This document shows, in pieces, positions 1 to 53,850 of a stretch of DNA of 64,000 nucleotides. This DNA comes from a virus (lineage: Duplodnaviria; Caudoviricetes). The notes under the pieces were generated by a model. It was not told the origin of the DNA. It searched no databases and was given only the letters and a program-made list of their open reading frames with translations. Made by a program: the position numbers and the translations under genes. Every line of letters starts with the position of its first letter. The first letter of the stretch is position 1. The DNA is taken from the IMG/VR virus record IMGVR_UViG_3300018495_000076, positions 1-64,000 of that record; one strand, written 5' to 3'.

Positions 1-675
1 ATCAAAAATTGCAAAATCAAAAAATGGTCTTCTTCCGCTAGATAAAAATATATCGTTATGAGAATACTGTGGTATAAAATTAATTTTATGGCTTGTTAAC
101 CATTGATTAATTTTCATTTCGCCTTTTGATTTAATGCAACCACAAGAAGTTGTATTTCCGTTTTTTAAATTGGTTGAATCAACTATTGTTCCTCCGCCAC
201 AATCACACTTGCACCGATAACATACGTGGTCAAATCTATTATTTGCAACTCGTTCTACTACTACCAATTTGCCAAACCGTTGTCCTACTAGCGACTTAAA
301 AGTTGCTTCACTAACTCTTTGTTTTTGATAACATCCACAAGACTGAGTGTTATTGTTTGTTAAATTCGATGTTTTAACAACAACTTCGTTACCACAATCA
401 CATATACATTTTTGATAAATTGGTGGAATCGATTCAATTACAGTTAATTTGCCAAACTTTTGACCAGTCAAATCAAGTTTATAAAAATGTTGATCTTTAA
501 TGTGTCCACAGCTAGTTGTGTGCCCACTAGTTAGGTAATCGGTTCTGACTTCTGTCATTCTTCCACAAGAACATTGGCAAACCCATCTAGTATATTTGTC
601 ATTTCTTTTTTCTGCTGGTATCAATGCGATAAGTTCGCCAAATTGTATCCCTGTCAAATTTAATTTTTTAGCCAT
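1..675 (-). CDS. Putative homing-type endonuclease: three tandem Cys-rich repeats plus a likely C-terminal nuclease domain; runs off the window start
   Basis: Manual translation from ATG at 675: MAKKLNLTGIQFGELIAL...WVCQCSCG...TTSCGH, with similar xxLxGQxFGKL...CxCDCG...SCGC repeats. Absent from the ORF track because it is truncated. Confidence 0.7.
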   Translation of the reverse strand, partial: MAKKLNLTGIQFGELIALIPAEKRNDKYTRWVCQCSCGRMTEVRTDYLTSGHTTSCGHIKDQHFYKLDLTGQKFGKLTVIESIPPIYQKCICDCGNEVVVKTSNLTNNNTQSCGCYQKQRVSEATFKSLVGQRFGKLVVVERVANNRFDHVCYRCKCDCGGGTIVDSTNLKNGNTTSCGCIKSKGEMKINQWLTSHKINFIPQYSHNDIFLSSGRRPFFDFAIFD

Positions 676-684
676 AATATTTTA

Positions 685-2190
685 TTACATTTCAGAAAGA
701 ATGTCATCGCTTACATTATCGACTCCGCCTTCTTCAACTTGTGCCACTGCAATTCCGGACAACGCCTTAAAGAACCAGTTCTTGTGCTTATATGCACAGA
801 ACTTAGGACGGTTGATAATACGCACTACAACTCCCTCACGAATGTGCGTCTTACCGACAGGATCGGGACCATCGTAGAACTGTTCAGCAATATCTTTTAC
901 TGCTTCGCCAATATGAGCTTCCTCATATTTAGCAACAAAGCGCTCTTCTCCTTCTGGAGTGGTATAGTACAATATAGAGCCATTGTTGTTCAAAATTGCT
1001 TTTGCAAAAACAGGGACAGTCTTTACACCAATCTGCTCACAACGGTAACGCATAAAGTCGGGGCTATACTCAACAGTGAAGCCGTCTTCGTTGGTCATGG
1101 TCATACGATATACATAGATGTCTGACTGAGGCGTTTTTTCATTATAAACATTAACACCTTCAATCATATCCTCTGTCTCAACCAACCGAAGACCATCAGG
1201 TTCGCATCCATAAGAGAACACTGTGGTCTGTCCATACTGTTTAACAAAATCTTTATCGTTGAGTTTCTTATTGTCTCCACTTGCCATAATAGGGGCACCA
1301 GTATGAGTGTATCCCACTACTTCGTAGAAAATTTCCTCACCCTTATTCAACTTGCCCTCAAAGAACTTTGAATGTGCTTCACGGAATTCATTACTTCCAT
1401 AATATCCACCCTCAAAATTCTCAAGTACGGTACGACGAGTACCAGATACGTAGCCCCAATCATAAATTGGCTCGCCGTGCTTAAGGCTATGATATAGCGC
1501 ATTACGTCCATCCGAACCCCAATTCTTTTTTGCCTTGACTGCCATTATAAGCTTGTTGATGAATCTACGATAAGAAGAATCTTTATAACCAACAAGAACA
1601 GGAAGATAGCCAGTTCTCTGTGAAGTGCCATGCATCTTGAGTGTAATCTCAATCTCATCACCGGGCTTAAATGCGCCAAGATTGTACGCAAGCTGTTCAG
1701 TATCTGCGTGTTCTGAAAACAAAGGTGCTACGGGCACTTTCTTCTTTCGAGTCTTGTTACCAGAAGAATAATGTCCTCTTCTATTCTGAGCGCGAGGTAC
1801 ATATTTGCAACAAATCTCGTGTCCGTTAAAACTATTAATTGCTCCCTCACGAAGAGTGGTAATATCACCAAAAGATTCAAGTGCCTTCAGAGGAAGGAAG
1901 AGGCCATCCGATTTCTCACCCCGAAGCTTAATAGCAGTTACATTTCTCTTGTCGGGATCCATATAACCACCGATATTATTACCGTTCTCATCCTTCTTGC
2001 GAAGCAGGTTGTTTGCCTCTGCGAATTCTACGGAAAGCTGACCGTCCGAAGGGAAATAAATTCCTAACTGATTATCCTGATACTCCATCGATACGATTAC
2101 GGCATTGCCAAAGCATTCACCAATCTGTAGTCGATCTGCATTTGGATGTTTGTGTAGGTTTTTGATTCTTGTAATGTAAGCGTTGTACAT
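685..2190 (-). CDS. ATP-dependent RNA ligase (DRB0094/Rnl5-like) with N-terminal OB-like domain
   Basis: N-terminal HPNADRL motif, adenylation motif I variant TLKMHGTS, YEVVG, and C-terminal REGVVVR...YKHKN (motifs IV/V). Confidence 0.8.
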   Translation of the reverse strand: MYNAYITRIKNLHKHPNADRLQIGECFGNAVIVSMEYQDNQLGIYFPSDGQLSVEFAEANNLLRKKDENGNNIGGYMDPDKRNVTAIKLRGEKSDGLFLPLKALESFGDITTLREGAINSFNGHEICCKYVPRAQNRRGHYSSGNKTRKKKVPVAPLFSEHADTEQLAYNLGAFKPGDEIEITLKMHGTSQRTGYLPVLVGYKDSSYRRFINKLIMAVKAKKNWGSDGRNALYHSLKHGEPIYDWGYVSGTRRTVLENFEGGYYGSNEFREAHSKFFEGKLNKGEEIFYEVVGYTHTGAPIMASGDNKKLNDKDFVKQYGQTTVFSYGCEPDGLRLVETEDMIEGVNVYNEKTPQSDIYVYRMTMTNEDGFTVEYSPDFMRYRCEQIGVKTVPVFAKAILNNNGSILYYTTPEGEERFVAKYEEAHIGEAVKDIAEQFYDGPDPVGKTHIREGVVVRIINRPKFCAYKHKNWFFKALSGIAVAQVEEGGVDNVSDDILSEM

Positions 2191-3367: not shown

Positions 3368-4114
3368 TTATTTAATACCTAATAGTGTTTTCCATGTATT
3401 AAGTCCACAGCATCCATCGACCACAAGCCCATTTCTCTGTTGAAAATTTTTTATTGCGGTTTCTGTTTCCTTGCCGGCAAGACCGTCTGGCTTTATTCCA
3501 AGCAATCTTTGTACAAGCATTGTTGAGTTTTTATATTTGTAAAATAATCTTCTTTTAACAATACACTTCGTCGCAACGCTTTCGGTTTCATTTCCCCATT
3601 TGCCATCTAAGCCATATGAGTTAAATTTAAAACCATCTGCTGATGCTGCTCTTTGAAAAGATAATACAAGATTTTCATCTTCGTTGGTTGTAAACTTTTC
3701 TAGTGGAAATAGACTCCCTGGGCAATTAGTTGTCATTAAATCTTTATGACCTTTGACATTCTTTATATTGTATTTCTTTTTCAAGTGCTCCACAAGCTCT
3801 AATCCAGATTCGACTTGTACTTGTGTTGGCATTTCTTTTTCGAAATCTCCTTCAAAACATATTCCAATGCTTGTTGAATTATACCCTTTTGCATGAGATC
3901 CAATAACATCATCTTGTCTACCTCTAAATATTCTGCCCTCTTTGTTTATGAAGTAATGGTATCCACAACCACTCCATTGATTAGACAAATGCCAATTATG
4001 AATATTGTATATACTACAATGACTTGATGCTGCATGGTGTAATACTATCATATCAATCTTGCTTCTTTTAGCTAATGCACCTGCCCAATTTAGGTTTGTT
4101 TCAATAATGTTCAT
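3368..4114 (-). CDS. N-acetylmuramoyl-L-alanine amidase (Amidase_2/T7 lysozyme-like) with C-terminal peptidoglycan-binding domains
   Basis: IVLHHAA, GYHYFI, GSHAKGYNSTSIGICFEG, GHKD..TNCPG; PG_binding_1-like DGLAGKETETAIKNFQQRNGLVVDG. Confidence 0.9.
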   Translation of the reverse strand: MNIIETNLNWAGALAKRSKIDMIVLHHAASSHCSIYNIHNWHLSNQWSGCGYHYFINKEGRIFRGRQDDVIGSHAKGYNSTSIGICFEGDFEKEMPTQVQVESGLELVEHLKKKYNIKNVKGHKDLMTTNCPGSLFPLEKFTTNEDENLVLSFQRAASADGFKFNSYGLDGKWGNETESVATKCIVKRRLFYKYKNSTMLVQRLLGIKPDGLAGKETETAIKNFQQRNGLVVDGCCGLNTWKTLLGIK

Positions 4115-4210
4115 AAGATAAACCACATCCTTGCTATAATCATTTTGTTGTGTTAAATCGTCGGCTATTTAACGCAACTTAATTATATCATAAGATGTGG
4201 TTTAGTTCAA

Positions 4211-4327
4211 TCATTTTGCATTGTGAAGTGCTCTGAGTTTGCGCTCCAATTTCGCAATAATACGGTCGTTATTGCTCGGTCTGGTTTTTAAAAGTGCAAT
4301 ACGTGCTTTAATTGCTGTTTCGTTCAT
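4211..4327 (-). CDS. Small basic protein (38 aa, MNETAIKARIALLKTRPSNNDRIIAKLERKLRALHNAK)
   Basis: AGGAGA RBS, ATG at 4327, TGA at 4211-4213. Confidence 0.6.
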   Translation of the reverse strand: MNETAIKARIALLKTRPSNNDRIIAKLERKLRALHNAK

Positions 4328-4357
4328 TGGTTGTGTTCTCCTTATTTGTTTTTAGTA

Positions 4358-4432
4358 TGGCTGGGATGGAAGGGATCGAACCTTCGAATACAGGAGTCAA
4401 AGTCCTGTGCCTTACCACTTGGCGACATCCCA
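4358..4432 (-). tRNA. tRNA-Gln(TTG)
   Basis: Full cloverleaf, anticodon arm CAGGA-CT-TTG-AC-TCCTG, encoded CCA. Confidence 0.95.
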
Positions 4433-4575
4433 ATATATTGCGCTTTTAACTTCGATAGGAGCGCTAACCTATCAAGCAATCACCTTCATCCACTTTGGAG
4501 TCATACCAAGGTTGCTCGTATGATATGATTTTTGTTGACAAAAGCACACGAGTGTGTACGATTATCTGTGTAGCA

Positions 4576-4664
4576 TGGCGCCACATTGAGGTGTCGATCC
4601 CCATACCTTTCACAGTACCTTTCGTTTTCAAGACGAAGTGCGAAGCCGTCCGCATTAATGTGGC
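4576..4664 (-). tRNA. tRNA-Ser(TGA) with non-canonical 8/4 fold
   Basis: 8-bp acceptor GCCACATT/AATGTGGC, 4-bp T-stem GGGG/CCTC, long variable arm, G73-CCA. Confidence 0.8.
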
Positions 4665-4667
4665 ATT

Positions 4668-4756
4668 TGGCGGAAAGCGTAGTATTCGAAACTAATACAC
4701 TAAACATGTACGCATCCCTTAGCAGGGGAGCCGCAATCCTCTTGCGTTCACTTTCC
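4668..4756 (-). tRNA. tRNA-Ser(GCT) with non-canonical 8/4 fold
   Basis: 8-bp acceptor GGAAAGTG/CGCTTTCC, 4-bp T-stem TAGT/ACTA, long variable arm, G73-CCA. Confidence 0.8.
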
Positions 4757-4761
4757 ATATT

Positions 4762-5580
4762 AAGAGCCGAGTATTCTATTATCCATGGAAGCCCCTCGGC
4801 TGGGCTACTCTGTTATCCTGAGTAAGGTGTGTCCTTATCGGACTAAATGCATCAACCGCCGAAACGATTGAAGGAACCTTTTCTACTGCTAGTAGATAGG
4901 CACAATTTGGTTAACCAAAAGACAGTAACGATATGGACAAAGCCGGCTTCGAACCAACCTCACCAACAGCATCGTCCCTCACAATGCTTAGTGCCCAGTA
5001 TCTACATCTTTTGGTATACGATTTCTATCTAAGCATCGCAACGACACGTTCTCGTCTTCCGCCGCTGGCAGTTCATTAGCTTCCCACTTATCCCTCAATT
5101 CAATCCGTCCCCAGCACGCATGCTGTCGAGGGGGCCAACTACTTTTCGATAGTATTGTTGTTTATAGGCTGTTCATCTCACATCCATTTACCACAGCTGC
5201 TAGACCTCACCTTTATAATAGTATCGACCTATTTCCTGGATGTTTACTCGGGTTAACAGCCCGTCCCAGGCTTCGTGGCACCTATAATTAACTTTCTTGT
5301 TCTGGCGCCCTCAAGAGAAAGGGTTCGTTAATGTGCCATAACGATAGGCTCCCTCACAAAAACTATCTGGAGAATAACACCAAACAATCGCGGCTTGTAG
5401 CTGCCCGTTATGCCCAGCTTCTATATTCCCACTATGCCCTTCGCTACAAATTAAAGCGAGTTTTTTATAAACAAGTACTCACCCTCCCGATTCTCCAAGT
5501 GAGACATCTGCACGATTGACCCATAATATTCAACCCTTTTCGGTGTAACAAACAGATGTGACTATTTTATTGATCGTTCT
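4762..5580 (-). ncRNA. Large structured ncRNA, GOLLD-like candidate (boundaries approximate)
   Basis: ~820 nt between tRNA-Trp and tRNA-Ser, richer in GC than coding DNA, many hairpins, no credible ORF. Size and phage tRNA-array context fit GOLLD RNA. Confidence 0.55.
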
Positions 5581-5601
5581 TTTATCACAATACTTGTTCT
5601 T

Positions 5602-5676
5602 TGGCAGGAGTGGATTGAAATCGAACAATCGTCAACAGTTTTGGAGACTGTTGTGCTACCATTGCACCACACTCCT
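5602..5676 (-). tRNA. tRNA-Trp(CCA)
   Basis: Cloverleaf, ACAGT-CT-CCA-AA-ACTGT, encoded CCA. Confidence 0.92.
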
Positions 5677-5683
5677 ATATAAC

Positions 5684-5805
5684 TAGCCACCTTTATAAGA
5701 CGGGATTCGAACCCGCGTCTTCAGCTTTTCACGGCTGACGCTCTAACCTCTAAGCTACACTGGCAATGATGAAGCCAATAGAATTAAAGTTGCTGTAGGT
5801 GACTA
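5684..5805 (-). ncRNA. Y-RNA(YrlA)-like RNA: terminal helix+ACAGCAA module enclosing a circularly permuted tRNA domain
   Basis: TAGTCACC-TACAGCAA...GGTGGCTA terminal stem. Inside: hairpin-closed acceptor TATTGGC/GCCAGTG, D arm, anticodon arm with 8-nt loop, T arm GCGGG-TTCGAAT-CCCGT. Confidence 0.75.
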
Positions 5806-5881
5806 TGGAGCGAGATACCAGATTCGAACTGGCGCTTACTGCTTGGAAGGCAGTCGTGCTAGCCGCTAACACTAATCCCGC
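5806..5881 (-). tRNA. tRNA-Gly(TCC)
   Basis: Cloverleaf, ACTGC-CT-TCC-AA-GCAGT, U73-CCA. Confidence 0.93.
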
Positions 5882-5935
5882 ATATGTTGCCTTTTTACAG
5901 AAGGCTAACTGTTTCTGGAGGTATAGAATGAAAAG

Positions 5936-6012
5936 TGGTTGGCCCTTAGGGACTTGAACCCTAGACCGCCTCGTTATGAGCGAGATGCTCTAACCAACTG
6001 AGCTAAAGGCCA
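5936..6012 (-). tRNA. tRNA with CAT anticodon (Ile2-like, or elongator Met)
   Basis: Cloverleaf, TCTCG-CT-CAT-AA-CGAGG, A73-CCA. Confidence 0.9.
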
Positions 6013-6048
6013 ATATAGCATGGCTTTCGCCATACTTAGTTGTGGCAT

Positions 6049-6138
6049 TGGTGCCGGAGAACGGGCTCGAACCGTCACGGAGTGTTTAGTTCCACGGGAT
6101 TTTAAGTCCCGGGTGTCTGCCAATTCCACCACTCCGGC
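6049..6138 (-). tRNA. tRNA-Leu(TAA)
   Basis: Type II cloverleaf, CGGGA-CT-TAA-AA-TCCCG. Confidence 0.95.
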
Positions 6139-6142
6139 ATGT

Positions 6143-6217
6143 TGGTCGGGATGACAGGGATCGAACCTGCGTAAACCAGTCCCCAAAGCTGGTGGGCAAC
6201 CACTGCCCCACATCCCG
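6143..6217 (-). tRNA. tRNA-Pro(TGG)
   Basis: C1-G72, A73-CCA, anticodon loop TT-TGG-GG. Confidence 0.92.
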
Positions 6218-6221
6218 ATAT

Positions 6222-6303
6222 TGGTGCTCGTAACAGGACTTGAACCTGCACGAATTAACATATGATCCTAAGTCATACGCGTCTTCCATTCCGCCATACG
6301 AGC
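6222..6303 (-). tRNA. tRNA-Leu(TAG)
   Basis: Cloverleaf, TATGA-CT-TAG-GA-TCATA, A73-CCA. Confidence 0.93.
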
Positions 6304-6376
6304 ATATTACAGTCCTCAATTAGCTACTTCAAGAACTGCAACACTTTGTACAAAACTCGTGAGTGTATACCTCACT

Positions 6377-6421
6377 TGTTGCCAGCGACAGGATTTGAAC
6401 CTGCTCTAAGCCATAACTGGC
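6377..6421 (-). ncRNA. tRNA minihelix-like element (acceptor + T arm only)
   Basis: GCCAGT...GCAGG-TTCAAAT-CCTGT-C-GCTGGC-A-ACA; D and anticodon arms replaced by a ~10-nt linker. Confidence 0.55.
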
Positions 6422-6570
6422 ATATTCGTTGATTGAGCCATAGGATTTTCACCTATGGGAGCAAGCGTTATTAGGCGGCTAGCATACCTAATAACAGGCT
6501 TTACTAATTCTATCCCCACTTACCATTTTCTTGCTTTTTCACATCTTGTATTTTTAAGAGATTTTCTTTT

Positions 6571-6640
6571 TGGTCGCCCTCAGGAGATTCGAACTCCATC
6601 GCTGCACACCTGTGCCGCCGCTCTTACCCTTAAGCTATCG
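6571..6640 (-). ncRNA. tRNA-like element or pseudo-tRNA (D arm, T arm and CCA; no anticodon loop, unpaired acceptor)
   Basis: TA-GCTT-AAGGGTAA-GAGC, hairpin GCGGCAC-AGGT-GTGCAGC, GGAG-TTCGAAT-CTCC, ACCA. Confidence 0.55.
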
Positions 6641-6752
6641 TTAGACTAATCTCTGCAACCCTATCCTAGAGTTGTACGGACTCCTATGGATAGGTCGTAC
6701 TTGTTGCATACTTAATGTGGCTTTATACTCACTACTCAATCATTTTGTTTTG

Positions 6753-8312
6753 TTAAACAATGTCCTTAACTGCGTCCTCGATAGCTTGATATCTTTCGAC
6801 ATTAAGCACATCGAGCAAACATTCGTAAGGATCAAGTTTGTTAGACATCACCATTTTGACAATGTTAACACTAAATCCACTAACAAGGGCAACGCCGAGG
6901 CCATTTTCTTTGACAGGAATGGTACCGGTGCGAGAATTTACATTCCAGAACACAAGTCTAGGGAGCTTGTATCCATGTGCTTCGTACTTCTTAGCAATCG
7001 TCTCAAAGAGTGTTGCCGTAGGAGCTTCACGATATGAATACCAGCCACTAGAGCGAGTGGAATTTGTGGTGGCACAAGAGTCAAATTCCATATCAGACAC
7101 GATAAGAATATTAGTAGGAATATCCTCCTGGGCCATATGGTTATTCACTGCCGTCTGAAGAATCAAATCAAATACTGCCTCAATATTAGTGTTTGCACAC
7201 TCATTGTGTCTCAGAGCAATACCCAACTTATCATGAAGAGTCTTGGCGTTGCTAAAGTCAACAAACTGTGGTCTTTCACTAAAGGTGATATACTTATCCT
7301 TAAACTCACCAGAAGCTCTTTCAGCAAAATAAATAGCAAGAGCATTGGCAACATCAAGAGCAGTAACACTAGTCTGACCACCAACATTGACAGTCATGCT
7401 GCCGGAACCGTCTGCGACAACAAGTGTATTGCCATTGCCATTCACTGTGTCGGGCAGAGCTTTCCACATACCCTCAAGTGCGGCGTCATGTAATCTAACG
7501 GACTGACTCCACATACCACCAGACATGTACTTATGCACAATATCATGAGGAAACAAAACAGAAGCATTAATCTTAGCCTCGCCTTTTTCAAGCGCACCAA
7601 GATATGCTCTACGACGCTCCTCATCGTTGCAAAGGAATGCATTGTTGTAAATAAGATTTGCACGAGAAGGAACGGCCTCATAATTGATTCTACCCCATTC
7701 TCTTGCAGACATCTTACATTCAACCACGTCAATATACTTACGGAGTTTAGAGAGCATCTTACGATAGTTCTTTGATGTCATGCCAAGCCCATTGCGAATG
7801 ATAGTTGCATATCTCTTTGTTTCCTTGGAAGACGCATTCTCTGAAGGAAGCCACTTTCCAATAAGAGAGATAGATTTATTGTTCTCCATGTTAATTCTGT
7901 CTTCACCAAGCTGTTCTGCGACACCAGCAATGATGTTCTGCTTCAAATCTGTATCAAGAAGACACCACATATCGTCGTATCTACCATATTCAGATGTAAA
8001 CTTCAGCACTGCCTTGATTACCTCAGGCTTATTCTGAGCAAGGTGCTTAAGCACGATTCTAAACAGTCTTCTTTCGCCAAGACCCTCACGGCAGTCTCTA
8101 GTGTAAAAGAGCCACTTGATTGCCACAATAGGATCTTCCCAATAAGCGTCCATAAACTTATCGATAATCGTCTGTTCCAAAGCGCCTCTGAGAGAAGCAA
8201 CGGAGAAGTTAAGATCAAGCAGTTTCTTGCCTGTGCTTTTAAATCCAACAGCACCATTTTCGGTCAACTGCTTTTCGTTGTTAAGTTCATTTTTCATTGC
8301 ATTCATAAACAT
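6753..8312 (-). CDS. DUF2828-family protein (helical domain + C-terminal vWA; Ro60/TROVE-like architecture)
   Basis: TENGA, LFYTRDCREGLGERRLF, YGRYDD, KWLPSEN, INYEAVPSRA, MIDAS motif DGSGSM, NTNIEAVFDLIL, SDMEFD, FWNV, LVSGFS; GGAGG RBS before ATG 8312. Confidence 0.88.
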   Translation of the reverse strand: MFMNAMKNELNNEKQLTENGAVGFKSTGKKLLDLNFSVASLRGALEQTIIDKFMDAYWEDPIVAIKWLFYTRDCREGLGERRLFRIVLKHLAQNKPEVIKAVLKFTSEYGRYDDMWCLLDTDLKQNIIAGVAEQLGEDRINMENNKSISLIGKWLPSENASSKETKRYATIIRNGLGMTSKNYRKMLSKLRKYIDVVECKMSAREWGRINYEAVPSRANLIYNNAFLCNDEERRRAYLGALEKGEAKINASVLFPHDIVHKYMSGGMWSQSVRLHDAALEGMWKALPDTVNGNGNTLVVADGSGSMTVNVGGQTSVTALDVANALAIYFAERASGEFKDKYITFSERPQFVDFSNAKTLHDKLGIALRHNECANTNIEAVFDLILQTAVNNHMAQEDIPTNILIVSDMEFDSCATTNSTRSSGWYSYREAPTATLFETIAKKYEAHGYKLPRLVFWNVNSRTGTIPVKENGLGVALVSGFSVNIVKMVMSNKLDPYECLLDVLNVERYQAIEDAVKDIV

Positions 8313-8351
8313 TTGATTGTCCTCCAAAATTGAATTTTTATAAAACAATCC

Positions 8352-8412
8352 AAGACACATTTGGTTATATAGATTAAAAGTCTATTCCAGTTAAGATTGC
8401 TGTCTGTGTCTT
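8352..8412 (-). ncRNA. Free-standing helix+ACAGCAA RNA module, copy A (in the DUF2828 leader)
   Basis: AAGACACA-GACAGCAA...TGTGTCTT, 8-bp terminal stem. Confidence 0.7.
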
Positions 8413-8430
8413 AAGATATCGTTTACATAC

Positions 8431-8577
8431 GAGATACCATAATTGTAATTAATTTAAACTAGGTTTAAATTGGCTATTGTCAGTCAATGCCTAAAACACA
8501 AGTATATTCCGCTTGGCATAACCGCGAATTAATTTCATCACTTACTATAATGTTATTAAAATTGCTGTAGGTATCTC
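8431..8577 (-). ncRNA. Free-standing helix+ACAGCAA RNA module, copy B
   Basis: GAGATACC-TACAGCAA...GGTATCTC, 8-bp terminal stem. Confidence 0.7.
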
Positions 8578-8587
8578 TTTGTTAAGC

Positions 8588-8644
8588 AAGACGCATTTAA
8601 CTTCAATCCCACTTTGAATTATATAAAATTGCTGTGTGCGTCTT
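8588..8644 (-). ncRNA. Free-standing helix+ACAGCAA RNA module, copy C
   Basis: AAGACGCA-CACAGCAA...TGCGTCTT, 8-bp terminal stem. Confidence 0.7.
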
Positions 8645-8651
8645 TAAATTA

Positions 8652-8780
8652 TGGTTGAGAGGGTTGGATTCGAACCAACGAGGCACAATGCCGATGGATT
8701 TACAGTCCAGAACATTGCTGCGTAGTCTCTATCAAGACTAACATAAGGCTCCATTGCGTTTACCACTTCGCCACCTCTCA
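8652..8780 (-). tRNA. tRNA-Tyr(GTA) with a 44-nt insertion in the anticodon stem (8708-8751)
   Basis: Removing the insert gives an 85-nt tRNA-Tyr with ATGGA-CT-GTA-AA-TCCAT. The insert holds hairpin TAGTCT/AGACTA followed by CGCAGCAA. Confidence 0.85.
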
Positions 8781-8785
8781 TTATT

Positions 8786-8906
8786 TGTTGCACGGAGTAG
8801 GATTCGAACCTACGGCACCAGGCACCCGAACGCATTGTAAATTTGCAGTTTAGGTTTATGTCTAAACCCAATTATTACTGTGCTCTACCAGCTGAGCTAT
8901 CCGTGC
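8786..8906 (-). tRNA. tRNA-like gene with a 44-nt anticodon-stem insertion (8834-8877); 8-nt loop GTTCGGGT, identity ambiguous (Arg TCG or Pro CGG); ends in ACA
   Basis: Acceptor GCACGGA/TCCGTGC, canonical D and T arms. CAG|GC rejoins to pair with GCCTG. The insert holds hairpin GGGTTTA/TAAACCT followed by AAACTGCAA. Confidence 0.7.
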
Positions 8907-8911
8907 ATATT

Positions 8912-9042
8912 AGGCGGGAAGGGCAAGATTCGAACTTGCGACCAACGGCTTAGCAGGCATTATCGTTAACATTGCTGTGTACGGCTTTACCAAGTCGCAT
9001 TGGTTGATGTTTACGTTGCTCTACCAACTGAGCTACCTTCCC
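8912..9042 (-). tRNA. tRNA(GCT anticodon, short variable loop) with a 55-nt anticodon-stem insertion (8959-9013); ends in CCT
   Basis: Acceptor GGGAAGG/CCTTCCC. ACG|GC-CT-GCT-AA-GCCGT after removal gives 76 nt. The insert holds hairpin TGCGACTT/AAGCCGTA followed by CACAGCAA. Confidence 0.75.
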
Positions 9043-9090
9043 AGGTCTCGATGAATCAATCATTTTGTTGTGTATCATCATCGTGAATTT

Positions 9091-9252
9091 ATTGTACCAT
9101 ACTTTATTTGATTTGTCAATAGTTCTTTCAATCTGTTTACAAATCGTTTACATTTGTTTATATTTTGGATTGATTTCCTATTGTGTTATCATTATAGCAC
9201 AATCATTTTGTTTTGTCAAGTACTATTTGTAAGCGTTAACATTTTGTTTACA
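9091..9252 (-). promoter_or_regulatory. Tandem sigma-A promoters driving the tRNA/ncRNA array, each with an upstream direct-repeat box
   Basis: TTGACA-17-TACAAT (9091-9119) and TTGACA-17-TATAAT (9191-9219), both with extended -10. Boxes at 9136-9152 and 9236-9252. Confidence 0.85.
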
Positions 9253-9255
9253 ATT

Positions 9256-9498
9256 TTACTCTTCGTCATTAGGACTCTGATCTACAATGAAGTCTTTAAT
9301 GCACATATAAATGTCTTTTGAACAACTTACATACAAATCTGCCCAACACATTCTTGCCGTAGCAGTAAACATCAAAGACTTCGCCGTAACTCTGCTTCCA
9401 AGTCCGTCCTCGATAAATACATCTTCCGGCACGGTCGATACATTTTTAACAAACTGAGCAATGTCATTCATTGTTTCTAAGTAAATTTTCTGTCTCAT
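9256..9498 (-). CDS. HPr/Crh-like protein
   Basis: 80 aa; RVTAKSLM resembles the HPr Ser46 motif V(N/D)AKSIMG; no His15 equivalent. Confidence 0.6.
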   Translation of the reverse strand: MRQKIYLETMNDIAQFVKNVSTVPEDVFIEDGLGSRVTAKSLMFTATARMCWADLYVSCSKDIYMCIKDFIVDQSPNDEE

Positions 9499-9538
9499 GC
9501 TGTTCACTCCTTTCTCAATCATTTTTGATTGTATGTTC

Positions 9539-9599
9539 ATTATATCATATATTTTCCAATTGTCAATATGTTTTTGTTATCGTTTACAATTCGTTTACA
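9539..9599 (-). promoter_or_regulatory. sigma-A promoter plus direct-repeat box
   Basis: TTGACA (9561-9566), TGaTATAAT (-10 at 9539-9544), TGTAAA-CGAAT-TGTAAA (9583-9599). Confidence 0.8.
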
Positions 9600-9662
9600 A
9601 TTATACCCCAAAGGGTGTGTTCCAATGGGGTATAATAGGTAATTATCACCGATAGGGTGTAA

Positions 9663-12600
9663 TTATAGAGTGGTTTTTCGAAGAGATTTCGTATCGTGCA
9701 GCCACTGTTGATAAGTCTTTAACTTTTCTACAAACAAATGGTTATCTTCTTTTCTTCCAAGAATACATAAACAACTGCCTTTAACAACAAAATCAGAATA
9801 CTCTTTCAGCTGTCTACTCCAAATTGTACCCTCAACAATTTGATTGTTGATACACAAGTCGATATATGCAAATGGATTGTTATTTTTATCTTTTTTTCGC
9901 TTAATGTCAACAATAACACATGGCACTATCGCTTTATCTCCATCGGGAATGTCATCCCATTCAATACCAATACGCGCATATGCTTCTTGTAAAGGGTTAT
10001 CAGTAATAAACATAGACAAACTTTGAAATTCCCACAAAAACTCATCCTGTGCATATTGCTCCTTAAAGTCTTGCATGTGCTTAGTGTACTTTTCTTTTTG
10101 TTGTTTTTCAAATAAGTCTTTCTTCTTCTGATTATAGATTGCCAAAACTGCGGTCTTATCTGTCTTTTTGCCAACTCGATAATCGTTAACATCAATTTCC
10201 CACTCGGTAAGTAACTTCAGCTTTGTCGGCAAAGAAGACACAGGAGTATATTCCTTAAATGTAAAGAGTGACTTAGCATATCTCTGCATCAATTTCATTT
10301 TATCACTAACTGGGAATGCCCCCGCTTTAATCAAAGCAATTGTGGCGGTTTTATCTTGAACCTTTGCTAAAAAATCATTAAAACTAGAATACGGCTGATT
10401 CTCAATAATTTTAGCAATTACAGACGATCCAATACCTTTAACTGCACCAAACCCAAACAGGATTTCTTTTTTGTCTGGATGTGCAGTAAAGCTATCACTA
10501 GATTCATTAATCTTTGGAGGAAGTACATTAACTTCTAGTCTGTGACAATCATTAATAATTGAACTCAACTTTTCAGTTCTATCTGATTTTGCCGTCAATA
10601 GTGCAGTCATAAATTCAACAGGATAATAAACCTTCAGCCACGCCGTCAAATAAGACAACAAACTGTACGCGACAGCGTGCCCACGATTAAAACTGTACTC
10701 TGCTTGCTTCGATATTAAAGCCCACACATCTTCAATCTGTTGTTCTGTCCACTGTTTACTGTCTAAACCATCCTTAAATTCTGTATATAAGGACGCCATC
10801 ACATCTTTCTTCTTTTTTCCAATTGCACGTCTTGCGGTATCTTGCTTTTCTTCTGGAAACCCTGCATAGGCAAACAGATGGAGTGCGTCTTCCTGGTATA
10901 AGAGAATTGAGTGTGTTTTCTTGAACAACTCATCTAAGTCTGGATGAATACTCTTTATCTCCTCTGGATGTAATTTGTTCTTGCAATAATCGGGAAAACT
11001 ATCTTTTGTGCCTGGTCTATTACTTGCATTAACAGCGATAACATCTTCTATGTTATCAACATGTGCATTAATACTCATTGTCCTTGCTTCTTGTGATTCA
11101 AACTGGAAAATACCAATTGTGTTACCAGAACTATAAACCTCATCGAATACTTTTTTATCATCAAGATTTAAGTGGTTAATATCAACATCTTTCCAAGTCA
11201 AACCAGTCAACCTCAAAGTGTCATCAACAATGTCCAAATTCTCCAATCCCAGATAGTCCATCTTACAATACCCAAGAGAATCCATCGCTGCATGCATTTC
11301 CAATTGTGCCATTACATTTTTGTCGTTGTCAAGACACAGAGGCATATGTTCTATGACCGGGTGTGGTGTAATTAAAGTAGCACTTGCGTGTCTACCTCTC
11401 GACTTAGGAAGCCCCTCAAGTTCCATAACATACTTAAACCACAAAGGAAACTGCTTATATATCTTGTCGAGCTTTTCATTTTTACCAACCAACTCTTTAA
11501 GCAACACTTCTTTTTCTTCTTCTTCACCAAGGTCACTTAAAGTTTTAACGGTAGGTATCATCTTGGCAACTTCATCCCTCATAGAATAAGAAATCTGCCC
11601 AAAATAAGGACTACTCTCTTTCTCGTTAAGAACCTTGCCAATATCTTTAATGGCCACTTTGGTACTCAAAGTATTAAATGTAGCAATTGGTGCGACATTC
11701 TCCTTACCAAACAATTCCTCAGTTAGCTCAATTATTTCTTTTCTTCTTCGTTTACTAATATCCCAGTCGAAGTCTGCAAGGCTACCAATACGACCCATGT
11801 TTGCAAAACGAGAAAAGTCCAAATCCCAACGCACACTATCAATCTGAGTAACGCCAAGCAAAAATAAACATAAGCAATTTGCTCCTGATCCTCTAGAGTA
11901 ACCCCTTGGCAACTCTCTTTTATCTGCTTCTTGAGCAATCATATACAACATGATAAAATAGTCCGTATAATCTAAAGCATTAATGACCGGTAACTCCCGC
12001 TCAAGTCTATCTCGTCTAATTTTCTGATCCTTTGTAGACATCCAACCAAACTTTTCATCAAAAGATTTAAAAACCAAGTAATGAAGATATTCTTCGTGAG
12101 ATGAGTATTCTGCTGGTACATCTACAACTGGTGTAATACTACCATGCCCAACACCATAATCAATGTTATCATCAACCATGTTGGCAATTTTTACAGTTTC
12201 GTCAATGCCTTTCTGAATAACCTCTTGAGAATTCCATCCACTCAAATATTGATATACATCTTTTTCGGTTTGCAAATGACATCCTGCATAAATTTCTCCT
12301 GCTTCACGACCCTCTCCAATTTCAACAAAAATAGAATGAGTATCAAGTTGGTCTGCATTTAACATATGTGCGTCAGTAGTAATAACATATGGAAGTCCAT
12401 TATCTTTTGCAAAATTATAAATTGCAGTATTGCATGACAACTGTTCCTCGGTAGGATGTGATTGAATCTCAAGTGATACATAATCAAATGTATCTTTAAG
12501 TAAATCAACATACTCTTTCGTTTCTTGAACTTTTCCATTCTCAAGATATCTACTCACACGCCCTGCTTGACAAGCAGTAAGACAAATAATACCCTCTCCA

Positions 12601-12992
12601 AGATTATTGTTATTAATCCAAGAGATAGATACCCTTGGCTTTCCATAGAATCCAGTTGTTGCAGCCTCACTTACAATCTTGAATAAATTTTTAAGACCTT
12701 GTTGTGTTTTAACAATTAACAATAGGTGATATCTTGGCTGTTTATACTCTTTAGTGTCTTGCTTTTCTAGGTAGTTGTCTACCTCATAAATCTCACAAGC
12801 CACAATGGGTTTAACTCCATGTTTGTTACACAACTCTACTTGATTGACAAACCCATGCATAGTCCCATGGTCTGAAACTGCAATAGCCGGCTGATTGTTG
12901 TCAGCAGCATATTTAACAATTTGCTCTACTGTTAAAATAGAGTCTAACAATGACCCAAGTGCTGAGTGCACATGCAAATTAACAAAACTCAC
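9663..12992 (-). CDS. dnaE: DNA polymerase III alpha subunit (family C)
   Basis: PHP domain LHVHS..SLLDS, SDHG; RGSGANCL; catalytic DFDWD; KMDYLGL; GIFQFES; YSFNRGHAVAYS; C-terminal OB fold. GTG start after AGGAGG. Confidence 0.95.
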   Translation of the reverse strand: MSFVNLHVHSALGSLLDSILTVEQIVKYAADNNQPAIAVSDHGTMHGFVNQVELCNKHGVKPIVACEIYEVDNYLEKQDTKEYKQPRYHLLLIVKTQQGLKNLFKIVSEAATTGFYGKPRVSISWINNNNLGEGIICLTACQAGRVSRYLENGKVQETKEYVDLLKDTFDYVSLEIQSHPTEEQLSCNTAIYNFAKDNGLPYVITTDAHMLNADQLDTHSIFVEIGEGREAGEIYAGCHLQTEKDVYQYLSGWNSQEVIQKGIDETVKIANMVDDNIDYGVGHGSITPVVDVPAEYSSHEEYLHYLVFKSFDEKFGWMSTKDQKIRRDRLERELPVINALDYTDYFIMLYMIAQEADKRELPRGYSRGSGANCLCLFLLGVTQIDSVRWDLDFSRFANMGRIGSLADFDWDISKRRRKEIIELTEELFGKENVAPIATFNTLSTKVAIKDIGKVLNEKESSPYFGQISYSMRDEVAKMIPTVKTLSDLGEEEEKEVLLKELVGKNEKLDKIYKQFPLWFKYVMELEGLPKSRGRHASATLITPHPVIEHMPLCLDNDKNVMAQLEMHAAMDSLGYCKMDYLGLENLDIVDDTLRLTGLTWKDVDINHLNLDDKKVFDEVYSSGNTIGIFQFESQEARTMSINAHVDNIEDVIAVNASNRPGTKDSFPDYCKNKLHPEEIKSIHPDLDELFKKTHSILLYQEDALHLFAYAGFPEEKQDTARRAIGKKKKDVMASLYTEFKDGLDSKQWTEQQIEDVWALISKQAEYSFNRGHAVAYSLLSYLTAWLKVYYPVEFMTALLTAKSDRTEKLSSIINDCHRLEVNVLPPKINESSDSFTAHPDKKEILFGFGAVKGIGSSVIAKIIENQPYSSFNDFLAKVQDKTATIALIKAGAFPVSDKMKLMQRYAKSLFTFKEYTPVSSLPTKLKLLTEWEIDVNDYRVGKKTDKTAVLAIYNQKKKDLFEKQQKEKYTKHMQDFKEQYAQDEFLWEFQSLSMFITDNPLQEAYARIGIEWDDIPDGDKAIVPCVIVDIKRKKDKNNNPFAYIDLCINNQIVEGTIWSRQLKEYSDFVVKGSCLCILGRKEDNHLFVEKLKTYQQWLHDTKSLRKTTL

Positions 12993-13091
12993 TACTTTTA
13001 TCCTCCTAATCATTGTGTTGCGTAATTATGATAATACCAAAGTACCTAATTTGTCAAGATACTTTGGTATTAATTCACATTTTATTTACAA

Positions 13092-53782: not shown

Positions 53783-53850
53783 CGTGACTTCGGATGCATA
53801 AGCACCCAAACGCACTTGGCTTAACACGGTTTAGCCTCCCCAAGTGGAGG
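53783..53850 (-). ncRNA. Pistol self-cleaving ribozyme
   Basis: P1 CCTCC/GGAGG with loop ACTTGG; CTAAA; P2 CGTG/CACG; TTAAG; pseudoknot strand CCAAGT; GCGT; P3 TTGGGTGC/GCATCCGA; A-GU cleavage site. Confidence 0.9.

Follow-up and report, generated by a model that had tools for sequence, protein, structure and literature searches.

Three consecutive tRNA-shaped genes located at positions 8652–9042 on the minus strand of a 64,000-nucleotide (nt) stretch of phage DNA each carry an insert of 44–55 nt within the 5' strand of the anticodon stem. The stretch (Duplodnaviria; Caudoviricetes) covers the first 64 kb of a complete genome of 174,761 bp, IMGVR_UViG_3300018495_000076, and is further referred to as the window; positions outside it are given as genome positions. 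The observation of insert-bearing tRNAs is real, far beyond chance, and conserved. Our reading, held with moderate confidence, is that the three genes are not ordinary tRNAs and encode unspliced, tRNA-scaffolded, Y-RNA-like partner RNAs of a Ro60-like protein. They sit 300–700 nt upstream of the gene of this protein, which contains the DUF2828 and DUF7788 domains. They most likely represent a new tRNA-format variant of the Ro60–Y RNA partner RNAs with a newly defined, putatively protein-binding handle.

All three inserts have the same architecture: a hairpin capped by a GNNA loop, 1–3 nt, the motif C(A/U)GCAA and a U-rich stretch. Gene 1 (8915..9042, here and below on the minus strand) combines an acceptor stem of 7 bp with a D arm and a T arm, the latter with the loop TTCGAAT; its anticodon stem ACG|GC/GCCGT is broken after nt 29, and the loop is CTGCTAA. 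The 55-nt insert 1 (8959..9013) contains a hairpin (8998–8981) of 7 bp including one A.C mismatch, with a GGTA loop, followed by ACA and CAGCAA (8977–8972); in the orthologue from the related viral locus L001 this stem is a perfect 9 bp. Gene 2 (8789..8906) has the stem CAG|GC/GCCTG and the 8-nt loop GTTCGGGT, and its 44-nt insert 2 (8834..8877) consists of a 9-bp hairpin with a GACA loop (8871–8850), a single A and CTGCAA (8848–8843). Gene 3 (8652..8780) is Tyr-like, with a GTA anticodon, a long variable arm and an encoded CCA; the stem is ATGGA/TCCAT and the loop CTGTAAA. Insert 3 (8708..8751, 44 nt) comprises a 7-bp hairpin with a GATA loop (8740–8723), CG and CAGCAA (8720–8715). The acceptor stem (7/7 pairs), the T stem (5/5 pairs), the T-loop consensus and the D stem are present in all three genes; the canonical anticodon arm, with an unbroken stem of 5 bp and a loop of 7 nt containing U33 and a purine at position 37, is absent from all three. 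The preliminary description of this region, made from the letters alone, stated that removal of the inserts restores 5-bp anticodon stems and that each insert is a hairpin followed by (A/G)C(A/T)GCAA, and we found both in all three genes. It had missed the 8-nt loop of gene 2, which is left after removal in silico, while the other two genes acquire a canonical anticodon arm. The junction in gene 3, described as ambiguous, may indeed be placed anywhere from 27/28 to 31/32, TGGA being repeated. The common insertion position 29/30 stands for genes 1 and 2 and does not extend to the relatives, in which the insert follows nt 28, 29 or 31.

With default settings ARAGORN calls seven tRNAs in the window, none of them within 8652–9042. 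When the intron option is used, three genes are reported: c[8652,8780] as Tyr(gta) with i(32,44), c[8787,8907] and c[8913,9042], the anticodon and intron assignment being arbitrary for the last two. After the inserts were cut by a script, default ARAGORN identified tRNA-Ser(gct) of 75 nt in gene 1, with a class-I body atypical for Ser, tRNA-?(Arg|Pro)(cg) of 77 nt with an irregular loop in gene 2, and tRNA-Tyr(gta) of 85 nt in gene 3. The Rfam tRNA model (RF00005) matches gene 2 at 8789–8906(-) with 49.1 bits (gathering score 29), and in this alignment 56 nt replace 11 model positions of the anticodon arm; genes 1 and 3 match no Rfam tRNA model at E ≤ 5. At the same threshold, the region 3500–10500 contains no ribozyme, intron or other Rfam family beyond tRNA-related matches. 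Folding of single sequences gives z-scores from -1.6 to -3.5; the minimum-energy folds retain the acceptor stem, the T arm and the insert hairpin and show no consistent structure of the anticodon region.

A protein-guided scan yielded 17 related viral loci, designated by L numbers. Rfam tRNA matches of 113–140 nt are located just upstream of the DUF2828 gene in L001–L008, L011, L013, L015 and L016. In our own scan, 21 long tRNA-shaped elements with an insert were found in the window and nine loci. A wider set of 130 loci contains 321 tRNA-shaped elements of normal length and 39 longer than 95 nt, and 23 of these 39 have the motif. A perfect hairpin of 6 bp or more whose end lies 1–4 nt before the motif is present in 17 of the 23 long elements, compared to 17 of 315 other motif occurrences from the same sources. 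The class also includes annotated genes: in Cronobacter phage S13 (L019, 4896–5138; 132703–132945 in the S13 record), the GenBank 'tRNA-Ser' of 121 nt and 'tRNA-OTHER' of 113 nt belong to it, with a hairpin in front of a variant motif, CAGCAC or CAGCAT.

Alignment of 12 members shows 98.8% pairing of the acceptor stem with compensatory changes at 7/7 pairs, 100% pairing of the T stem (4/5 pairs compensatory) and 84.1% pairing of the insert hairpin (5/7). A candidate GUAA/UUAC helix bridging the insert is 79% paired in the same members and displays no covariation. The alignment indicates that the tRNA body and the insert are both under structural selection and, since the stems and the insert hairpin covary, that the insert-bearing genes are not decaying. 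Direct repeats (TGGA, ATAGA, ATAGT) border some of the inserts and many loops are irregular, as might be expected of dead, functionless tRNA genes broken by a spreading repeat. We regard this explanation as highly improbable, given that compensatory changes preserve the acceptor stem, the T stem and the insert hairpins, and that the class is kept beside DUF2828 in phages whose proteins share only 37–73% identity. In the contigs of four DNA sequencing runs, searched at 80% likeness, no intron-less allele of this phage could be demonstrated, the apparent joints being unrelated tRNAs with other letters between the two sides; a few substitutions were observed within the hairpin loop of the Tyr insert.

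The same element occurs in free-standing form. Free-standing modules consist of an 8–9-bp helix followed by invariant ACAGCAA, and in the window the strand preceding ACAGCAA pairs with a strand located 33–123 nt downstream. Module 1 (8588..8644, minus strand, z = -3.5) reads AAGACGCA, CA, CAGCAA and, further on, TGCGTCTT. Module 2 (8431..8577, minus strand, z = -3.4) reads GAGATACC, TA, CAGCAA, a 123-nt interior and GGTATCTC. Module 3 (8351..8413, minus strand) lies just upstream of the DUF2828 ribosome-binding site and encloses an anticodon-arm look-alike, ATAGA CTTTTAA TCTAT. At 5684..5805 (minus strand, z = -3.1) the 9-bp module helix takes the place of the acceptor stem of a tRNA-like body, which gives a partial Rfam tRNA match at 5699–5758 (45.9 bits, model positions 7–64). 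The fifth module lies at genome position 70111, approximately 60 kb away, between Tyr and Thr of a second tRNA cluster outside the window (genome 69509–70366, plus strand; Glu, Asn, Ala, Asp, Tyr, Thr, Met), and here, too, the helix substitutes for the acceptor stem of a tRNA-like body. As follows from Rfam scans of the window and the phage loci, the module matches no family of Rfam 15.

The window and 12 loci together supply 32 free-standing copies, and ACAGCAA is invariant in 32/32. Pairing in their 8-bp helix reaches 93.8%, compared to a shuffle mean of 70.2% with 0/500 shuffles equalling it, a percentage inflated by the selection of the copies for having a partner strand. Compensatory changes occur at 8/8 helix pairs, and slid controls are 28–50% paired; judging from the aligned copies, it is the covariation that is informative for free-standing modules, not the percentage of paired positions. 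The motif count alone is weak: ACAGCAAT has 8 matches with 3.9 expected, and 4/100 shuffles reach 8, though half of the matches (4/8) fall at 8396–8978(-). A side observation is that the G immediately following the 3' strand of the helix (...CTTG, ...CTAG, ...CTCG) is near-invariant in the 32 modules.

The two forms of the module are related by topology. In mycobacteriophage LeBron, S13 and Felixounavirus dune, the module helix closes a permuted tRNA-like domain consisting of a T arm, a closed acceptor hairpin and a D arm. The 5'-to-3' order in these YrlA-like RNAs is handle strand, ACAGCAA, linker, T arm, acceptor, D arm and partner strand, and the free-standing modules have the same topology. 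The three genes instead begin and end at the acceptor stem, and the GNNA loop caps their handle helix. Opening this loop and joining the acceptor ends gives the YrlA-like order, and this ties the three genes to Y-RNA biology; compared in this way, they appear as a circular permutation of the YrlA-like RNAs encoded beside DUF2828 in other phages. The preliminary description was correct in calling the module in the inserts permuted. When compared with the Rfam YrlA model (RF02553), the LeBron copy scores 39.8 bits (E = 2e-7), under the gathering score of 69, and S13 scores 18.1 bits.

YrlA RNAs were reported to adjoin genes of TROVE-domain Ro60 proteins in bacteria and phages (Chen et al. 2014, PMC4201824). 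The elements described here resemble them in being small RNAs beside a Ro60-type gene, with a stem that would bind the protein and a tRNA-like domain. They differ in that the handle, the helix with ACAGCAA, is missing from the Rfam YrlA consensus alignment, in that the window genes have tRNA topology and two of the three retain a canonical anticodon loop, and in that the window protein belongs to the Pfam families DUF2828/DUF7788 instead of TROVE.

The DUF2828 and DUF7788 protein (6753..8360, minus strand; Pfam, PHROG 850) is predicted to have a Ro60-like ring and a vWA domain. The first in-frame ATG, at 8360, falls within the 3' strand of module 3, whereas the ATG at 8312 follows GGAGGA with 7-nt spacing, and most homologues align only from residue 13–18 on; given this spacing and alignment start, 8312 is probably the true start. 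The AlphaFold2 model of the protein has a predicted local distance difference test score (pLDDT) of 82.7. In the Foldseek search with this model, ranks 1–12 are all Ro60, Rsr or phiLo Ro60, aligned at full length over approximately 520–600 columns. Ro60 of Thermus phage phiLo (9kop, 9l5y) is the top match, and Deinococcus Rsr, Xenopus Ro60 and human Ro60 are among the others. The motif DxSxS (D317-S319-S321) in the vWA part is invariant in 13 homologues. The protein is thus predicted to fold like Ro60, as a HEAT-repeat ring and a vWA domain with a metal-site motif. At the level of sequence, the window protein matches DUF2828 and DUF7788 only and does not match Pfam TROVE (E ≤ 0.01), and phmmer found nothing significant among PDB sequences. 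Five cultured-phage homologues (E ≤ 0.001) match the same two Pfam families and no TROVE, LeBron gp53 adding a sub-cut-off match to VWA_CoxE.

Viral contigs were scanned with AAGACACNNACAGCAA, which gave at least 83 matches, among 80 listed loci. Among the matches listed, 33 have a partner strand and 50 do not; a DUF2828 gene is present in the locus for 14/33 of the former and 1/50 of the latter. In seven cultured phage genera, modules flank DUF2828 genes of only ~25–40% identity, the phages being Bacillus Tsamsa, Fusobacterium Fnu1, Vibrio ValKK3, Cronobacter S13, mycobacteriophage LeBron, Felixounavirus dune and Listeria LMSP-25, cka14 and cka16. These positions indicate that the module is linked to DUF2828 across distant phages. 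In cka14, cka16 and LMSP-25, three modules are located ~170–330 nt upstream of the DUF2828 orthologue.

The placement of the modules bears on a different explanation, namely that they act mainly in cis in the DUF2828 leader, as sites of translation autoregulation or processing, with the tRNA shapes serving as punctuation for RNase P/Z and with no stable trans-acting ribonucleoprotein (RNP). Indeed, the DUF2828 start is immediately preceded by a module in the window, in L001, L002, L003, L004, L008 and L010, in Tsamsa, Fnu1 and ValKK3, and in the Listeria phages. In Fnu1 and ValKK3 it opens the DUF2828 mRNA leader right behind a sigma-70-like promoter, and in ValKK3 (L021, 2950–3000) the 3' strand of the module covers the DUF2828 ATG, a pairing that suggests translational autoregulation. 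In the window, two sigma-70-like promoters, identified as consensus matches only, precede the whole array upstream of gene 1 (9091..9219, minus strand): TTGACA-17-TATAAT (12/12 to the sigma-70 consensus) and TTGACA-17-TACAAT (11/12). No terminator-like site was seen on the minus strand between them and DUF2828. However, modules also occur downstream of the DUF2828 gene, in LeBron, S13 and L015, or in the tRNA cluster 60 kb away; each genome has many copies, whose tRNA-like interiors are elaborate, and the acceptor and T stems are under structural selection. We therefore consider a mainly cis-acting role quite unlikely.

Under the reading as tRNA-scaffolded partner RNAs, the promoters at ~9.1–9.2 kb would drive joint transcription of the three genes, the three free-standing modules and the Ro60-like DUF2828 gene. 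The ends of the three RNAs would be cut as tRNA ends are, and the 44–55-nt insert would be retained in the RNA. The insert, comprising the helix, single-stranded ACAGCAA and the U-rich stretch, would serve as the binding handle for the DUF2828 protein. The tRNA body would be the counterpart of the YrlA tRNA-like domain, providing stability and a surface that tRNA-binding enzymes or tRNA-attacking host nucleases could engage. Such an RNP may participate in RNA repair or counter-defence.

A more specific role of the RNP, set apart here for its different predicted phenotype, is that of a decoy: the handle-bound protein would display tRNA bodies or anticodon-arm look-alikes that soak up or sense host anticodon nucleases. 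A strict 5-bp/7-nt hairpin of the form YU-NNN-R-N is enclosed in 8 of the 32 free-standing modules (shuffled interiors: mean 0.69, 0/500 reach 8), with the loops CTTTTAA (three modules), CTGATAA (two) and CTTGTAA among them. On this evidence the handle appears to present parts of tRNAs, as a decoy or substrate mimic would. The anticodon loops of the insert-bearing tRNAs change fast between orthologues. Phage Bas63 gp130, possibly a DUF2828 protein, was reported to counter the Ppl defence (PMC11482910). On the other hand, the remaining 24/32 modules have no such hairpin, some of the eight are orthologous and hence not independent, no target nuclease is known, and the same source describes Ppl as acting on DNA, not tRNA. 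The decoy role is, accordingly, very doubtful in our estimate.

The preliminary description left a choice between a short protein-dependent intron and an unspliced chimera of tRNA and module. The chimera is the better supported of the two, since the module is conserved, covaries, is tied to the Ro60-like gene and is present where splicing makes no sense; the intron is weakened, not refuted. If the inserts were introns, they would be cut by an unknown endonuclease, possibly guided by DUF2828, and the RNA-ligase-like enzyme would rejoin the halves into working tRNAs. Once the inserts are removed, each of the three genes does have a 5-bp stem and the Tyr anticodon arm is a textbook one, and the 5' boundary of the insert is G|UA in 12/12 aligned members. 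A fully canonical anticodon stem-loop with a 7-nt U33/R37 loop may be obtained in 12 of the 21 members, including genes 1 and 3, and L002 and L004, two distant loci, share a GTT loop. An RNA-ligase-like gene (685..2190, minus strand; PHROG 968, E = 7e-59) lies 4.5 kb off; homologues are found near DUF2828 in 2/21 loci searched (L002, L003), and in Listeria phage LMSP-25 a gene near DUF2828 carries the annotation 'tRNA splicing ligase'. In the ligase-like protein, the matches to Pfam RNA_ligase and to the PHA02142 OB domain are both under the cut-off, and phmmer gave no significant match among PDB sequences.

Against splicing, the complete phage genome contains no match to the EndA-type endonuclease (PF01974; control matches were obtained in 4 archaea) and none to RtcB (PF01139). 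An 8-nt loop would remain in gene 2, and for 9/21 members a canonical solution is impossible. The insertion site varies, and the loops differ between close orthologues. The fold of the gene 1 orthologue (L001:3313–3438) is kept by compensatory changes with the loop CTTATAA instead of CTGCTAA; the gene 2 orthologue (L001:3448–3564) has TTGAGGA instead of GTTCGGGT; and the orthologues in L015 and L016 have CGGGG and AAGGC, respectively. The identical module occurs in mRNA leaders and closes YrlA-like domains, where there is nothing to splice. An uninterrupted tRNA-Tyr(gta) with a body unlike that of gene 3 is encoded elsewhere (genome 70012–70096). Judging by the loops and by this intact tRNA-Tyr, decoding looks dispensable, and we find it unlikely that the inserts are introns. 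Combining both functions, the handle could be a Ro60-like binding site and a removable intron at once: a DUF2828 RNP would hold caged phage tRNAs, to be released by an unknown nuclease and the phage RNA ligase upon attack on host tRNAs. This combination appears quite doubtful; if true, it would be the first short protein-dependent tRNA splicing pathway in the bacterial and phage world.

Known introns provide further comparison. The inserts resemble the protein-spliced tRNA introns of archaea and eukaryotes in being short and placed in the anticodon arm of an otherwise complete tRNA, in a genome with a ligase-like gene. They differ in their position (28–31, not 37/38), in the often irregular residual loops and in the lack of EndA-type and RtcB genes in the phage. 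Group I introns interrupt tRNA genes of bacteria and phages in the anticodon loop. We rejected them as candidates: at 44–55 nt the inserts are much too short for the catalytic core (>200 nt), and no intron family was found at E ≤ 5 in 3500–10500.

Several points weigh against unspliced partner RNAs. The canonical arms in 12/21 members and the GTT loop common to L002 and L004 imply that some members may still decode, with or without splicing. None of the 22 listed sequencing runs is recorded as RNA. That DUF2828 binds the module is proposed from linkage and analogy. The pairing in the free-standing copies is inflated, as stated above, and the window matches to the Rfam YrlA model (25.7 and 23.3 bits, gathering score 69) merely span two neighbouring tRNAs. 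A loose rule, C[AT]GCAA with a helix of 8 bp or more anywhere within 200 nt, does not discriminate genome-wide and was rejected: it selects 26/324 motif occurrences, compared to 6–21 in 20 Markov simulations. This is near chance; the signal comes from the extended motif, position and covariation.

Other phage Ro60 systems have been reported. The phiLo Ro60 was shown to bind a pair of Y-like RNAs encoded upstream of it as well as the PNPase of its host (Hu et al. 2025, PMC12135203). As in that system, with its Yrl1 and Yrl2, the window encodes a phage protein with a predicted Ro60 fold and partner-type RNAs just upstream. Unlike the window modules, the phiLo RNAs are chosen by a CGAA motif in a stem-bulge-stem fold, and the available part of that study describes neither embedding in tRNA nor ACAGCAA (PMC12135203). 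In jumbo phages, ROT/TROVE proteins with a tRNA-like partner were noted (Iyer et al. 2021, PMC7824862). According to a 2024 preprint (PMC11482910), Bas63 gp130, which counters Ppl, is Ro60-like and adjoins tRNA genes, and some of the Bas63 'tRNAs' are guessed there to be Y RNAs. In Listeria phage CKA15, three very abundant non-coding transcripts map within 2 kb upstream of an Rsr-like gene (PMC12282133). The Listeria comparison was made with the siblings cka14 and cka16 of CKA15 and with LMSP-25.

In the engineered 'tRNA scaffold', a foreign RNA is put in the anticodon stem for stability. The three genes have the same arrangement, an RNA module in the anticodon arm and a tRNA body for folding, end processing and stability; engineered scaffolds are man-made, and the three genes would be their natural counterpart. 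We found no description of the ACAGCAA handle or of its tRNA-embedded forms in the literature on DUF2828/DUF7788, on phage Ro60, YrlA and Y RNAs, on TROVE and vWA proteins in RNA repair, on tRNA-like decoys, or on intron-containing phage tRNAs; the phage YrlA lists in the supplements of Chen et al. 2014 may include some RNAs with the module, e.g. that of LeBron.

DUF2828/DUF7788 proteins are encoded in approximately 700 sequenced phage records, including the Felix O1-like, KVP40-like, P100-like, Staphylococcus, Campylobacter and mycobacteriophage groups, and in the sources available their RNA partners have so far only been guessed at (PMC11482910, PMC12282133). A helix followed by ACAGCAA now provides a searchable RNA signature, which comes in the formats of mini hairpin RNAs, acceptor-less tRNAs, YrlA-like permuted tRNAs and full tRNAs with a handle in the anticodon arm. 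It also explains 'odd' long tRNA annotations in phages, such as the 121-nt 'tRNA-Ser' of S13. Ro60-type RNA recognition, the origin of Y RNAs from tRNAs and the use of RNPs against tRNA-targeting or other defences become testable, and E. coli K-12 with a Felixounavirus and M. smegmatis with LeBron are tractable systems.

The source genome, which originates from animal-gut metagenomes, is bounded by direct terminal repeats; CheckV rates it 100% complete, and its GC content is 36.6%. Every gene within 1–14 kb of the window is on the minus strand. Besides the RNA-ligase-like and DUF2828 genes, these comprise an amidase gene, a tRNA cluster (4358–6303, minus strand) and a PolIII alpha gene (9663–13013, minus strand). 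Directly downstream of the RNA-ligase-like gene there is an HNH/homing-endonuclease-like open reading frame (ORF; PHROG 374) at 1–675(-), open at the window edge.

Several minor observations concern other candidate RNAs. T-arm-like pieces at 6566–6660 and 6373–6425 (minus strand) read GGAG TTCGAAT CTCC then ...GCGACCA, and CAGG TTCAAAT CCTG then CGCTGGCA. They are called by neither ARAGORN nor Rfam, with only a weak match to the 3' end of transfer-messenger RNA (tmRNA; 8.8 bits), and single-sequence folds are uninformative. The stretch of ~1.15 kb at 4440–5600(-), between tRNA-Gln and tRNA-Trp, contains no minus-strand ORF longer than 85 aa. Its GC content is 46%, compared to 33–35% in the flanking genes, and it has no Rfam match at E ≤ 5; we list it as a candidate large structured RNA. 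Finally, a Pistol ribozyme (Rfam RF02679) is matched at 53783–53850(-) with 38.5 bits, above the gathering score of 34.5.

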